From Candidatus Sericytochromatia bacterium (GTDB lineage: Bacteria; Cyanobacteriota; Sericytochromatia; S15B-MN24; UBA4093): DNA of 64,000 nucleotides. The stretch covers positions 1 to 64,000 of the forward strand of contig JAKFCT010000066.1 in the NCBI GenBank assembly GCA_036676495.1. Direction: 5' to 3'. Below the pieces are notes generated by a model. That model worked only from the letters and a program-made list of their open reading frames with translations, had not been told where the DNA came from and ran no database searches. How positions within the stretch are numbered: the stretch's first letter is position 1; each line of letters begins with the position of its first letter. Shown here in pieces: positions 8,271 through 51,110 of this stretch. The position numbers were made by a program, and so were the translations under genes.

Positions 8271-8312
8271 CTGAGCTAGATCAGTTTCAAGGCTTCCCAA
8301 AAGATTTAACCT
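8271..8312 (+). promoter_or_regulatory. Crp/Fnr-type box (motif A) plus -10 upstream of EAL-MCP genes
   Basis: CTGAG-CTAG-ATCAG at 8271-8284; TAACCT at 8307-8312 (box centre at -41.5). Confidence 0.7.
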
Positions 8313-8353
8313 GGCTAAGGAATTCGACGCCGTCACGACGAAGGACTTGCCAC

Positions 8354-9442
8354 ATGGGAAGCTGCGAACAGTTTGGAATCCACTGCACGGGCTGTGCCTC
8401 GTTGCCTCGGCTGAGCCCCGCGGGGGGGCGGCTGTACCTGTTTCTGCCCACCGAGTTCGCCGCCGCCAAGGTCTGGGACGGCTTCGCGGAGGTTCCGCTG
8501 GCCGGAAATCGCCATCTTCACCTCGAGGTCGCCCCCGGCGGCCTCGAGGCCGTGTTGAAGCGTCTTGGCGCCCTCTTGAGCCGTACCGAGCGCGAGCAGG
8601 TGCGCACCCTCTTCAAGGAGACCCCCGGAGAGCCGGGAATCGCCGACTTGGCAAGCGTGACCTCGCTTGCCGAGCTGATCGCCCGTAGCGAGGGCGACTG
8701 GCTGCTCGCGCTCATGCAGGCGGGGCGCATGACCAGCTACTTCCAGCCGATCGTCGAGGCGGCGGATCCCGCGCGGATCTTCGCCCAGGAGGCCCTGCTG
8801 CGGGGGCGGGACGAGGCGGGAGACCTCGTGCCGCCGATCCGGATGTTCGACGCCGCCCGAGACGCCGGCCTGCTGGTGCAACTGGATCAGCGGGCCCGCT
8901 TCACCGCGGTCACGGAGGCCGCGCGGGCCCGCCTCCAGCAGACGCTCTTCATGAACCTCAACCCGGCCGCCATCAACGACCCGGCGTCTTGCTTGCAGGC
9001 GACCTTGCGCCAGATCGACGCCTTCGGCTTGTCGCGCGACCGGGTCGTCTTCGAGATCGTCGAGACCGACCGCGCCCGTCGCCCGGAGGACCTCGCGGCC
9101 CTGCGCGACTACTGCCGCCGCGAGGGCGTGCGGATCGCCCTGGACGACTTCGGGGCGGGCTACGCCTCGGTCACGCTCCTCCACCTCCTGCGCCCCGACT
9201 TCGTGAAGCTCGACCGCGAGCTGGTGCACGACATCCACGCGGATCCCTACAAGGCGTCGATCGTCGAGCGCCTGCTCGATCTCTGCCGCTCCCTGGGGAT
9301 TCGCAGCGTGGCCGAGGGCATCGAGCTCGAGGCCGAGCTCACCTGGTTCCGCGCGCACGGGGCCGACCTGGCTCAGGGCTTCCTCTTCGCCAGGCCGGCG
9401 CCGCTCCCGACGCCCACCCCGGCCTCCCACTCGCTCGCCTGA
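8354..9442 (+). CDS. EAL-domain c-di-GMP phosphodiesterase with Cys-rich N-terminus
   Basis: [35 protein letters not shown] all intact. Confidence 0.92.
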
Positions 9443-9453
9443 AAGGGGATCAA

Positions 9454-11013
9454 ATGACCATCCAGCAGAAACTCATCTTCCACGTGGTCTCGGTGGGAGC
9501 GCTCATCTTGCTATTCCAGCTCTTCGTCGGCTTCCAGATGAGCCTCGCGACCGGGCTCTTCTTCGTCGCGCTCCTCTTCATCGACCTGGCCGGCGACTTC
9601 TGGACGCTGCTTACCATTCGCCGGGACGTCAATACCGTGATGGACAACCTCGTGGCCGTCAGCGAGGGGGATCTCAGCCGGGAGGTGCCGACCTCCGAGG
9701 CCAAGGACGAGACGGCCGCCATGCTGCGGACGGTCAAGCGCATGGTCGCTGGCCTGCGCAGCTTGATTTCCGAGGTGCGCGGGGCCGCCGATGAAGTGGA
9801 GGCCGGCGTGATCCGGATTTCCAGCGGCACCGAGCAGACGGCCAAAGCCTCGGACCGCCAGCTCGGCGCCATCGCGTCGGCCACGGGCAGCGTCGCCACC
9901 ATGGCCGAGCGCAGCCGCGCCGTGGGCAAGAACGCCCAGGCCCTCTCCGAGAACGCGGACGTGGCGTCGCGCTCGGTGCATGAGATGGTGGCGGCGATCC
10001 GTCAGGTGGCGGGCCATACCGACGCGCTGGCCGCGGCCGTCTCCCAGACTTCGGCCTCGATCGAGCAGATGGCTGCAAGCATCCAGCAGGTCGCCACGCA
10101 CGTCGACGAGGCGAGCAATGTCTCCGAACACTCGGCCCAGGCCGCTCAGGACGGGCGCGCGGCCGTCGAGCAAAGCATTGCCGGCATGGCCCGCATCCAG
10201 GAGACCATGACCGCCATCGTGACCTCCATCGAAGGCCTGGGGAGGCGCTCGGAGGAAATCGGCGCCATCATCGCGGTGATCGACGACATCGCGGATCAGA
10301 CCAACCTCCTGGCCCTGAACGCGGCCATCGAGGCGGCGCGCGCCGGGGACCACGGCCGGGGCTTCGCGGTGGTCGCCGACGAGGTCAGGAAGCTCGCCGA
10401 GCGCTCCTCGAAGGCCACCGGCGAGATTGCCTCCCTCATCCAGGGCATCCAGCGGGAGACCACCCAGGCGGTGAACAGCACCGAGCAGGGCCGCAAGGCC
10501 ATCGTCGAGGGCACGCACCTCGCGACACGAGCCGGCGATTCCCTGGGAGTCATCGTCGCGTCCGTCGGCCAGGTCTCCCACCTGATGACGCAGATCTCCC
10601 AGGCCTCCCACGAGCAGGCACGGGCGGCCTCGCAGATCACCGAAGCCGTCGGCTCCATGAATCTGCTCACCCAGCAGGTTTCCGACGCCACGCGCTCCCA
10701 GGCGCAACGCTCCGAGCAGGTTCTGGAGGAGGTCGCCATGATGACCGAGCGCATCCCCGAGGTCTCCCGCTCCAGCATGGCGCAGGAGGAAGGCGGCAAG
10801 GAGGTACTTTCCGCCGTCGCCGCCATCCGGCAATCCGCCGAAGAGAGCGCCCGGGCCACCGACGATATCACGCGCTCGGCACGGGAACTGCAGGATCGCG
10901 CCCGGCGCATGCAAGTGGCCATCTCGGCCTTCAAGGACAAAGGCGCCCCCCCGCCCCGCCAGACGTCCTCTCCCTCGTTGCCGCCCGCCCGTGAGCATGT
11001 CAGAATGCCCTGA
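9454..11013 (+). CDS. Methyl-accepting chemotaxis protein
   Basis: Two short TMs, HAMP-like region, [38 protein letters not shown]; start after AAGGGG. Confidence 0.93.
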
Positions 11014-11138
11014 GCGGCCATGTCTCGCTGATTCCACCCCGAGCCAGCAACTTTCTGCCAGGCCGGCATCCCGCTAGAGGAGGAGCACCATGACCTCAAT
11101 CGCCGTTTCGACACCCTCGGAGGGAAGGGAGCGCCGCG

Positions 11139-49107: not shown

Positions 49108-49182
49108 AGCTAATCCTCCCTTGGACGTCTGTATCAATGGTCGTTTACAAGCCGTCATGTGTCGTCCGCACATACTACGCAC

Positions 49183-49213
49183 AAAAAAGGGAGGCAGGCA
49201 TTGCCTGCCTCCC
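49183..49213 (-). terminator. Rho-independent terminator after nirS
   Basis: AAAAAA-GGGAGGCAGGCA-T-TGCCTGCCTCCC. Confidence 0.85.
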
Positions 49214-49222
49214 GGCGACCGT

Positions 49223-50872
49223 CTAGTAGACGTCGTGTTGGGTGTTGTAGGTGTTGAACTTGCCGGTGGGGGTCACGAGGCGCTTGTCCTTGATGACCGC
49301 CTTGAGCTTCCGGGTCTTGTCGTCGAGGACGACGAGCGCGGACTCCTGGTTCATGCCGTTCCAGACCGAGAACCAGATCTCGTCGCCGGCGCGGTTGTAC
49401 TCGCCCTGGACGACGCGCTTGGGGCCATCGCCGAGCTTGGCCAGTTCGGCGACCGGGATCACCTCATAGCCCTTGGCGAGGTCCTTGGTGTTGAAGACCG
49501 CCACGGACTGGCTAAGTTCGGGATCCGGGTTGAGCGGGGTGTCGACCCAGAGGTTGTTGCTCTTGGGGTGGGTCTTGATGAAGAGCGAACCGCCGCCCTG
49601 GCCTTCGATGGTCTCGACGACCTTCCAGGCGTACTTCTTGTTCTTGACGGGGTCCGTGCCGATCAGCGAGATGGACTCATCGCCCAGGTGGCTGGTGGCC
49701 CAGACGGGACCGAACTTGGGGTGGATGAAGTTGGCACCGCGGCCGGGGTGTGGGGTCTTGCCGACCTCGACGAGCGCCGCGAGCTTGTTCTCCTTGGTGT
49801 CGACCACGGCGACCTTGTTCGACGCGTTGGCGGCGACCAGGAAGTAGCGGCCGGTGGAGTCGAAGCCGCCGTCATGCAGGAACTGGGCCGACTCGATCTC
49901 GGTGATCTTGAGGTTCTTGAGATCCGAGTAGTTGACGACCTGGATCTTGCCGGTCTCCTTGACGTTGACCACGAACTCCGGGCCGTAGTGCGACGCCACG
50001 ATGGAGGCGACGCGGGGCTCGGGGTGGAACTCCTGGGTGCCGACGGTCATGCCGCGGGTGGAGACGATCTTCTTGGGCTCGAGGGTGAAGCCGTCCATGA
50101 TGACGTACTGGGGCGGCCAGTAAGAGCCGGCGATGGCGTACTTGTCGTCATAGCCCTTGTACTTGGAGGTTTCGACCGAACGGGCTTCGAGGCCGACGCG
50201 GATCTCCGCGACGTTGTCGGGCTTGGCCATCCAGAGGTCGATCAGGTTGATGCGGGCGTCGCGGCCGATCACGTAGAGGTAGCGGCCGGACTTGGACATG
50301 CGCGAGATGTGGACGGCGTAACCGGTCTTGACGATGTTGATGATCTTCTTGGAATGGCCGTCGATGAGCGCGATCTCGCCGGAGTCCCGCAGGGTGACCG
50401 AGAAGATGTTGTTGAGATCGTACTTGTTCATCGGCTTGGTCGGGCGCTTGTTGACGGGAACGAGCACCTTCCAGGTGGCCTTCATTTCCTTCATGCCGAA
50501 CTCCGGCGGTTGCGGGGGCTCGTTCATGAGGTACTTGGCCATCAGGTCGACTTCGGCGGCCGACAGCTCGCCGGCAGCGCCGAAGTTCGGCATGCCGGCG
50601 GGCGTGCCGTTGGTGATGACGTTCTTGAGGTAGTCATAACCCTTGGTCAGCGTGATGTCCGTGGTGAGGGGTTTGCCGGTGGCTCCCTTGCGCAGCACGC
50701 CGTGGCAGCCGGCGCAGCGCTGGAAGAAGATTTCCTTGCCCTTGGCCCAGTCCGATTCGGAGAGCGTGGGGGCGGTTGCCTTGCCTTGGGCCTGGACGGC
50801 GACTCCCCCGAGCAAGGGGGCGGCGGCGAGGATGGCAAGGCCGGCAACGAGCGTGAGAGTGCGATGTTTCAC
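49223..50872 (-). CDS. nirS: Cytochrome cd1 nitrite reductase
   Basis: [53 protein letters not shown] start after GGAGG. Confidence 0.97.
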
Positions 50873-50942
50873 GTATGTCCTCCATCGTGAGTGTCGGGAA
50901 ATGCGCATAGCATCCCCTTCGAGTTGATTGGCCTCGCCTACC

Positions 50943-51110
50943 AATCTAGCGACTTGCTCATCAACTGGTCATCCGGGCAAACTACGCAAGCCAAAATGCG
51001 GCATTTTACAAGCCTTTACAGCTACTACGTAGTTTCCCCTGATTATCAGTTCGGGGGGATGGGGTAACCTGAGGTAGCTCATAGTGTGCCTTTCAGGCGT
51101 TCGATAGGCT
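50943..51110. promoter_or_regulatory. Divergent nirS/ccoN control region
   Basis: Motif B 50971-50986 with minus-strand TAGATT 50948-50943; motif B 51028-51043 with TAACCT 51065; motif A CTGAG-GTAG-CTCAT 51069-51082 with TAGGCT 51105. Confidence 0.75.

Follow-up and report, generated by a model that had tools for sequence, protein, structure and literature searches.

A 64,000-nucleotide stretch from a Candidatus Sericytochromatia bacterium (the window, positions 1-64000 of contig C66 in a 4.14-Mb assembly with 66% G+C) carries similar 14-bp near-palindromes in front of nirK, norCBQD, ccoN and four other genes or operons. This raises the question of whether the palindromes are one operator, which protein reads them and what that protein responds to. 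An initial annotation had taken them for a Crp/Fnr box, ATGAG-N4-CTCAT, that controls a seven-promoter regulon for nitric oxide (NO) and low oxygen and is read by two local Crp/Fnr paralogs with the recognition helix YEECVR. From comparisons within the genome and across the phylum we consider it quite probable that nTGAG-N4-CTCAn is the operator of a YEECVR subfamily of Crp/Fnr regulators.

The seven 14-mers are in the window exactly where they had been placed, and the labels of the genes behind them (EAL-MCP, with MCP for methyl-accepting chemotaxis protein, DUF2249, methyltransferase, nirK, the DUF1858 operon, norCBQD and ccoN) all hold. In six of the seven a -10-like TAnnnT hexamer begins 29.5 nt from the box, and in the seventh it begins at 28.5 nt, again as annotated; offsets are measured throughout from the box centre to the start of the hexamer, on the strand of the target gene. 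Boxes and hexamers are as follows, where L001 to L003 belong to a set of four loci of other Sericytochromatia (L001-L004). The closest named records are metagenome-assembled genomes of Candidatus Sericytochromatia.

8271..8284, plus strand: box of the EAL-MCP operon, CTGAGCTAGATCAG, the weakest match
8307..8312, plus strand: -10-like TAACCT, 29.5 nt
21289..21302, minus strand: box of the DUF2249 gene, TTGAGCCACCTCAG; same box and TAACCT in L001 and L002
21261..21266, minus strand: -10-like TAACCT, 29.5 nt
22223..22236, minus strand: box of the methyltransferase gene, ATGAGCCACCTCAT, a perfect ATGAG-N4-CTCAT, kept in L001 and L002
22196..22201, minus strand: -10-like TATCAT, 28.5 nt, the offset also found in L001 and L002
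23717..23730, minus strand: box of nirK, TTGAGGTTTCTCAT, invariant in the window, L001 and L002; L003 also has a nirK box
23689..23694, minus strand: -10-like TAGGGT, 29.5 nt
26936..26949, plus strand: box between the quinol-type NO reductase gene (qNor) and the DUF1858 operon, ATGAGCCCCCTCAT, a perfect palindrome
26972..26977, plus strand: -10-like TATGCT, 29.5 nt
35691..35704, plus strand: box of norCBQD, CTAAGCTGCCTCAT, left half CTAAG
35727..35732, plus strand: -10-like TAGACT, 29.5 nt
51069..51082, plus strand: box of ccoNOP, CTGAGGTAGCTCAT
51105..51110, plus strand: -10-like TAGGCT, 29.5 nt

As a consensus ATGAG-N4-CTCAT proved too strict, since only three of the seven sites come within one mismatch of it and 8271 differs from it at three positions. 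What the sites have in common is the looser core nTGAG-N4-CTCAn, with TGAG-N4-CTCA exact in five of the seven and one half-site change each in 8271 and 35691. The FNR, ANR or FixK-type box is TTGAT-N4-ATCAA and the CRP box TGTGA-N6-TCACA. The TGA-N6-TCA core that had been said to be shared with both is retained in our comparison, and so is the claim that the box differs from either, the FNR form occurring once and the CRP form twice in the genome and neither in the window. Relative to the FNR half-site TTGAT, the half-site here has a G after TGA and a loose first base.

A simple count would suit the view that these are chance similarities of unrelated promoters. Matches with at most two mismatches to the annotated consensus number 25 in the window against 20.6 +/- 4.2 expected, a total that 19 of 100 shuffles also reach, and for the strict core the genome has 57 matches where 44 are expected. 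Seven of these 57 fall in the window, which is 1.5% of the genome. Two of them, 7623 and 11709, were rejected as sites; they lie inside coding sequence with no hexamer at 29.5 nt and are probably chance matches. By plain count the pattern is not enriched in the window; the evidence for the sites comes in part from weight matrices made independently of the window. The first matrix was built from 45 sites of photosynthetic cyanobacteria and the second from 14 of the 15 strict matches in the four other Sericytochromatia loci, the remaining one, which falls within the L002 regulator gene, being excluded. In scans of the whole genome the first ranks the seven sites 1, 3, 4, 6, 9, 23 and 24, and the second places six of them at ranks 1-4, 6 and 8. 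The ccoNOP box is the top-scoring site of the genome with both matrices, the DUF2249 box has ranks 3 and 6, and the 26936 box has rank 2 with the second matrix, in which the intragenic 7623 has rank 7. The 8271 box stands at rank 4 with the first matrix and at rank 44 of 313 with the second.

The spacing argues against chance in a different way. TAnnnT occurs at a rate of 0.0053 per intergenic position in this genome, so a hexamer at one given offset in six of seven sites has a probability of about 1.6e-13, a value to which the post hoc choice of the offset adds a factor of a few tens. Among the other 306 matrix hits, TAnnnT stands at 29.5 nt on either side in 3, against 3.2 expected. Since these hits are at the background rate, the spacing is specific to the seven annotated sites and to C28:162253, the promoter of a third DUF2249 gene, which has rank 2 with the first matrix, TAACGT at 29.5 nt, and was found with both matrices. 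The regulon would therefore comprise at least eight promoters and not seven. Two further candidates, nadA (C52:79185, TAGACT at 29.5 nt) and C94:5301, cannot be told from this chance level. With the matrix ranks, the spacing, and the conservation and co-occurrence described below all contradicting it, chance similarity is scarcely credible.

The helix sequence GITYEECVR is carried by only two proteins of the genome, both of them Crp/Fnr proteins.

15499-16224, minus strand: Crp/Fnr paralog 1, helix GITYEECVR; likely start ATG 16197, giving 232 aa
23760-24479, minus strand: Crp/Fnr paralog 2, helix GITYEECVR; 10 nt downstream of qNor

Both show the PF00027 and PF13545 domains of the Crp/Fnr superfamily architecture. 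The predicted structure (mean predicted local distance difference test score 88.5) has a beta-roll, a long helix and a helix-turn-helix (HTH), with the helix at 199-210 starting Y-E-E-C-V-R. Its top fold matches are all Crp/Fnr proteins, the best by TM-score being apo-DNR (3dkw_A, TM 0.69, root-mean-square deviation 3.8 A, 24% identity), a match that may merely reflect the extended conformation of the model. The only other HTH-bearing Crp proteins of the genome, two in number, have the CRP-like helices SRETLTR and SRETVTR. Homologues form three groups: the orthologues of paralog 2, with 74-83% identity, those of paralog 1, with about 60%, and a third group at 35-44%, which is labelled cyanobacterial wherever the source names an organism. 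Across 30 aligned members, down to 35% identity, T-Y-E-E, V and R of the helix are invariant and C is nearly so; His148, at the end of the long helix, is invariant as well. The family signature is (G-I-T/S/A)-Y-E-E-(C/S/T)-V-R, and variants such as IAYEESVR, VSYEECVR, ITYEETVR and ISYEETIR also occur (L099/G100, L105/G122, P0123, P0128, P0133). Among 1.84 billion cluster representatives, some 14-16 clusters at 50% identity carry Y-E-E-(C/S/T)-(V/A/I)-R, and the next matches read TVETAIR. A profile of the family gives 1.3e-110 and 4.2e-108 for the two paralogs, and its scores are bimodal, with members at 1e-63 or below and other Crp proteins at 1e-38 or above. None of the curated NCBIfam models for CRP, Fnr, FnrL, FixK, NtcA, FtrB and PtrA comes near its cut-off for either paralog. 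Judged from these alignments, the YEECVR helix is the mark of a distinct Crp/Fnr subfamily, present in Sericytochromatia and in many photosynthetic cyanobacteria.

The box reappears beside this regulator in photosynthetic cyanobacteria. When all 256 four-base dyads spaced by 4 nt were compared in 76 loci around the regulator gene, TGAG came out as the most over-represented (59 observed, 18.0 expected, z 9.7), most matches having the 20-bp form tcTATGAG(C/G)TA(G/C)CTCATAGa. The commonest 10- and 12-mers of these loci are dominated by the HIP1 repeat and by the coding sequence of the regulator itself. A methyltransferase gene of about 258 aa adjoins the box at 22 of 44 sites, a globin or cupin-globin gene at 14, the divergent regulator gene itself at 15, hcp at one, and an alternative oxidase gene with a divergent RIC/YtfE gene at one. 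The S-adenosylmethionine (SAM) methyltransferase is the most constant box target across the phylum.

A first scan for TAnnnT in photosynthetic cyanobacteria gave no peak at 29.5 nt, because their hexamer begins with C, as a position-wise profile reveals. For this profile we chose by hand 34 promoters out of 45, oriented towards the target gene, and left out two intragenic hits, four duplicates of another locus and five that either lie at a contig end or have no gene start on the side in question. T26.5, G27.5, C29.5, A30.5, A32.5 and T34.5 are conserved, A30.5 and T34.5 in 33 of the 34, which we read as a probable extended -10 element, TGn followed by CAnAnT, with the hexamer again at 29.5 nt. 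T40.5 and A41.5 are conserved too and match -1/+1 of a start predicted 41.5 nt from the box centre.

Regulator and box also occur together at the level of whole genomes. We took 401 genomes of the phylum, scored the regulator as present at a profile E-value of 1e-63 or better and searched for the strict 15-nt pattern TGAGSTASCTCANAG, which is found in 60 of them. It is present in 45 and absent from 11 of the 56 genomes with the regulator, and present in 15 and absent from 330 of the 345 without it. A reversed control pattern occurs in 8 of the 56 and 25 of the 345, which shows that the effect is independent of genome size and composition. By hand count, 17 of the 45 genomes with both have a strict box at most 10 kb from the regulator gene, on the same contig. 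Three matches from two of the genomes with a box only were checked and are all intragenic. Pattern matches in genomes of family f5 that lack the regulator were likewise set aside as intragenic; the local Crp helix there is SRETLTR.

If some other protein read the box and the YEECVR regulators were mere neighbours, a genome such as G005 would be expected, as it has the box-methyltransferase promoter and no regulator of the family was found in the available part of its assembly. The co-occurrence and the proximity of regulator and box speak against this idea. The dyad symmetry and 14-bp size suit a Crp/Fnr dimer, and the remaining two HTH-bearing Crp proteins of our genome have CRP-like helices, so that another reader is very improbable. 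The YEECVR paralogs thus remain the probable readers, a proposal that gains support from their being the sole carriers of the helix in the genome, from the invariance of the helix, and from co-occurrence and proximity. The further claim that both of them read the box goes beyond what is needed. Paralog 1 alone seems sufficient, because G109, a relative from the same genus with one family member, keeps its norC and ccoN boxes, and because L002 has nirK directly after qNor, without paralog 2 in between.

Among the Sericytochromatia loci, L001 and L002 are syntenic with the window and have boxes at the same four promoters (the DUF1858 operon, nirK, the methyltransferase gene and the DUF2249 gene). 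L001 carries a fifth box, and L003 and L004 have boxes as well, two of those in L003 being 33 nt apart, one for each direction. Promoter alignments of nirK, the methyltransferase gene and DUF1858 show the box and the -10 as conserved blocks. In the four related loci TAnnnT is at 29.5 nt on one side of 12 of 14 boxes, and the other two are methyltransferase boxes with 28.5 nt. The pairing of box and methyltransferase gene is found in all the Sericytochromatia loci examined.

For the promoters outside this syntenic block we used a second set, five genomes of the same family that include G112 and G109, which are of the same genus, as well as G046 and G070; G043 is cited too for ccoN. The norC box is present in all four relatives that have norC (G112, G109, G046 and G070), with the consensus TGAG in G046 and G070. 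An EAL box is found in one of four relatives, G112, where box and TAACCT are identical despite a diverged spacer, and three other genomes with EAL genes of 44-46% identity have no box upstream of them. The ccoN box is present in two of the five relatives, the same-genus G112 and G109. In other genera ccoN has different palindromes upstream, TATGAGAGCTTTCTCATA (TGAG-N6-CTCA) in G070 (L083) and ATCAGGG-N7-CCCTGAT in G046 (L084) and G043 (L085), and to judge from these the regulatory input of ccoN is one that has turned over between genera of the family. Neither the 26936 box, on its qNor side, nor the 51069 box, on its nirS side, has a hexamer at 29.5 nt in any genome examined, so the spacing gives no support for box-driven promoters of qNor and nirS.

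Class II activation from -41.5 is established for CRP, FNR and NtcA, and the distance from box to hexamer fits the class II geometry that had been proposed, in the window, in the relatives (12 of 14) and in the 34 cyanobacterial promoters. In the mechanism that this suggests, the predicted regulator dimer would bind the palindrome about 41.5 nt upstream of the transcription start, take the place of a -35 element and activate promoters that have only a weak TAnnnT -10. Eight or more promoters would be switched on in this way, most likely by NO, and would make up a module for nitrite-to-N2O conversion and NO protection. Its proposed targets are nirK, norCBQD, the DUF1858/DUF2249 operon, two further DUF2249 genes, the methyltransferase gene and EAL-MCP, with the cbb3 oxidase added in this genus. 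We infer the binding, the activation as opposed to repression, the start-site positions and the signal from sequence. Repression is an alternative, in which the box is a repressor operator that the regulator leaves upon the signal, since a palindrome just upstream of a -10 might block RNA polymerase too. However, the box occupies the place of the -35 element at a fixed 29.5 nt from a weak -10 in about 50 promoters of distant genomes; a repressor has no need of such exact phasing, which is a hallmark of class II activation in this superfamily. Repression is thus improbable, and class II activation is the reading that we keep.

We lean, by a little, towards NO as the signal. It is favoured because the phylum-wide regulon consists of NO-detoxifying and repair genes, to which nirK, the nor genes and DUF1858 are added here, and because the members other than paralog 2 lack an FNR-type Cys cluster and one His is invariant. 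An oxygen or mixed signal is favoured by the ccoN box and by the three extra Cys of paralog 2, and the same regulator and box could answer to low oxygen or redox state with the logic of FNR and FixK. The genome's best box is that of the cbb3 oxidase genes, low oxygen generally induces denitrification genes, and Cys10 and Cys59 (six of six) and Cys35 (five of six) of paralog 2 and its orthologues (P0002, P0005, P0006, P0008, P0009) could hold a cluster, or more generally could give this paralog a separate redox or cluster-based input. Against this, paralog 1 and the photosynthetic-cyanobacterial members lack these three residues and any Cys cluster, with only the helix Cys conserved. The core targets in the phylum are NO-detoxifying or repair functions (globin, hcp, RIC, alternative oxidase), and the ccoN box is limited to one genus and to two of the five relatives. 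A low-oxygen signal is therefore unlikely. The label of an NO/low-oxygen regulon fits the gene content of the window, but its low-oxygen member ccoN has a box only within this genus.

Several observations weigh against the interpretation of the box as the operator of an NO-responsive YEECVR activator. A search for RNA runs that cover 20900-27600 of the window found none. The plain pattern count in the window is not above chance, and two of the seven sites (8271 and 35691) deviate in the core, 8271 having the backing of only one genome, which is of the same genus. The genes that one would most expect an NO regulator to control, qNor with paralog 2 and nirS, have no -10 at 29.5 nt beside the nearest box. 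As a typical low-oxygen target with the top box, ccoN fits an oxygen signal as well as it fits NO. The genomes compared for co-occurrence are related and unequal in size, so that its p-value, which takes them as independent, is too favourable, and the strict pattern is missing from 11 of the 56 regulator genomes, which for Sericytochromatia is due in part to a looser spacer. Finally, the 34 promoters of the profile were hand-picked, with 11 of 45 left out, and they include groups of close relatives.

Comparison with known regulators places the YEECVR proteins near several of them and within none. With FNR, ANR and FixK they share the Crp/Fnr fold, a 14-bp dyad with the TGA-N6-TCA core, the predicted -41.5 position and, in this genus, a cbb3 oxidase among the predicted targets. 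They differ in the helix, which is of the E--SR type in FNR, and in their scores with the NCBIfam Fnr model NF008365 (27.2 and 26.6 bits, cut-off 228). The helix Ser of FNR is said to contact the first T of the half-site; by analogy, YEECVR would have Val in place of this Ser and Tyr and Glu at two further positions. FNR binds its cluster by three N-terminal cysteines and a central one, an arrangement that the family lacks, the three Cys of the paralog 2 orthologues being differently spaced. With CRP there is a likeness in fold and in the TGA-N6-TCA dyad, but the CRP model NF008732 has a cut-off of 266 bits, of which the paralogs reach 38.1 and 43.2. Where CRP has the Arg-Ser pair with which it holds cAMP, the family has A-P, as judged by eye from the alignment.

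In what they would control, the regulators resemble DNR, NnrR and NNR, the Crp/Fnr activators through which denitrifiers respond to NO, as a predicted Crp/Fnr activator stands before nirK and nor genes whose boxes are at the spacing of an activator. The difference lies in a weak sequence similarity (E 2.8e-7 to the DNR chain), a different box and the confinement of the YEECVR family to Cyanobacteriota as far as named matches go. NtcA, the cyanobacterial global nitrogen regulator, has the box GTA-N8-TAC. It too is a cyanobacterial Crp/Fnr activator acting from about -41.5, and one record of our family is labelled 'Global nitrogen regulator', but the paralogs score only 30 and 50.5 bits with TIGR03697 (cut-off 244.95), and helix, box and regulon differ.

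Likewise tied to NO-detoxifying genes in cyanobacteria is HcpR (slr0449/Avar17201), a Crp/Fnr regulator of hcp and norB also known from delta-proteobacteria, which Rodionov et al. 2005 (PMC1274295) predicted in two cyanobacteria with the box TTGAC-N4-GTCAA. The passages on HcpR in that paper make no mention of a TGAG box. In G183 (L104, G183:C1:3475500-3482500) a qNor gene whose product is 46% identical to that of the window is divergent from a Crp/Fnr regulator gene, with TTGAC-N4-GTCAA between the two. This arrangement agrees with HcpR as those passages give it, and is a second, unrelated NO-linked Crp/Fnr system in the phylum. The helix of the G183 regulator is IPATLSR and it is 27% identical to paralog 1 over 186 residues, which makes it a separate family; TGAC dyads are rare in the 76 regulator loci, with 8 in all.

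Searches of open-access papers, main texts only, gave no description of the YEECVR family or the TGAG box. Together they apparently represent a new subfamily of Crp/Fnr regulators, one with an operator of its own and a phylum-wide regulon, and point to an NO stress response of cyanobacteria that seems to be undescribed. The chances seem to us about even that this is an old NO-sensing lineage, predating the split between Sericytochromatia and the oxygenic cyanobacteria, in which YEECVR reads TGAG-N4-CTCA. Its core regulon would be globin, methyltransferase, hcp and RIC, extended in Sericytochromatia to the nitrite-to-N2O module and in one genus to the cbb3 oxidase, so that in the non-photosynthetic sister class a stress regulon would have grown into a respiratory regulon. 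If this is true, oxygenic phototrophs would have a nitrosative-stress response that has gone undescribed, and the conserved methyltransferase, here flagged as a candidate NO-defence gene, would be a new NO-defence enzyme. The Crp/Fnr recognition code would also gain a new pair, the helix YEECVR with the half-site TGAG. How cyanobacteria handle NO is poorly mapped, and the only regulator that we found in print is of the HcpR type, from 2005 and for two strains, in the passages cited (PMC1274295). The system proposed here would be a second and far more widespread one, with a clear predicted operator, a fixed promoter architecture and a short list of targets. The prediction is directly testable because culturable carriers exist, among them Nostoc sp. 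NIES-4103, Pleurocapsa sp. CCALA 161 and Mastigocoleus testarum BC008.

The genes of the window around the boxes, other than the two regulator genes, are listed here.

8354-9442, plus strand: EAL cyclic di-GMP phosphodiesterase gene (Pfam EAL, 1.3e-54)
9454-11013, plus strand: methyl-accepting chemotaxis gene, after EAL (MCPsignal, 5.1e-52)
20986-21222, minus strand: DUF2249 gene, 78 aa (Pfam PF10006, 9.9e-28)
21314-22120, minus strand: SAM-dependent methyltransferase gene, 268 aa (Pfam)
22572-23645, minus strand: nirK, copper nitrite reductase (Pfam multicopper oxidase domains; TIGR02376, 198 bits, cut-off 296)
24490-26784, minus strand: quinol-type NO reductase gene, qNor (Pfam NorB_cytochrome_c-like and COX1)
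27007-27546, plus strand: DUF1858-DUF2249 fusion, gene 1 of 4 in the DUF1858 operon
27549-28856, plus strand: divergent heme-copper-oxidase-like protein, gene 2 of the operon (weak COX1, below cut-off)
28870-29175, plus strand: FeS_assembly_P protein, gene 3 of the operon
29172-29564, plus strand: 130-aa COX1-like piece, gene 4 of the operon (weak COX1, below cut-off)
35749..40520, plus strand: norC, norB, norQ and norD
49223-50944, minus strand: nirS (cytochrome cd1), divergent from ccoN
51195-53924, plus strand: ccoN (51195-52640), ccoO and ccoP, cbb3-type oxidase (TIGR00780, 733.6 bits, cut-off 583)

The gene ccoN starts at ATG 51195, with its GGAGGA ribosome site, and not at TTG 51114. Both types of nitrite reductase (nirS, nirK) and both types of NO reductase (qNor, cNor) are encoded within 30 kb. 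DUF1858 is a domain of the ScdA_N type, and the heme-copper-oxidase-like proteins of its operon are kept in L001-L003. The methyltransferase at 21314-22120 is the genome's best match, at 30% identity, to the box-linked methyltransferases of photosynthetic cyanobacteria; its best curated match is the DVU_1556 family, far below the cut-off. Between this gene and nirK there is a conserved open reading frame of 80 aa (22302-22544, minus strand) with no Pfam match, which is 82% identical over 60 residues to the one in the same position in L001.

Separate from its Crp box, the methyltransferase promoter has a second palindrome at the -10.

22182..22196, no strand assigned: palindrome TGAGAATGATTCTCA, 7-1-7, abutting and overlapping the methyltransferase -10

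The palindrome, TGAGAATNATTCTCA, is conserved in L001 and L002, and its shape resembles that of Fur-family boxes. Genome-wide there are 12 sites with at most two mismatches, C52:37836 and C28:198428 among them; most are intergenic, and three tandem copies lie near the 5' end of a 720-aa gene at C82:127803-127877. The methyltransferase gene may thus have a further input, a repressing and possibly iron-linked one.

Upstream of paralog 1 there is no TGAG-N4-CTCA box. Downstream of it, at 14874-15266 on the minus strand, a small Cys-rich protein of secreted appearance is encoded. The homologue in L001 (152 aa, 60% identity over 100 residues) has a box with a -10 at 29.5 nt upstream, whereas the window copy has no box and the extended -10 TGGTAAGCT instead. 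A recurrent motif of the type (A/C)TCCGTAGTTT is found upstream of paralog 1 at 16251, where it is kept in L001 and L002, at 51025 and at over 20 further intergenic positions of the genome. Between nirS and ccoN it makes up the palindrome ACTACGTAGT, and it may be either a widespread -10-like element or a binding site for some other factor.

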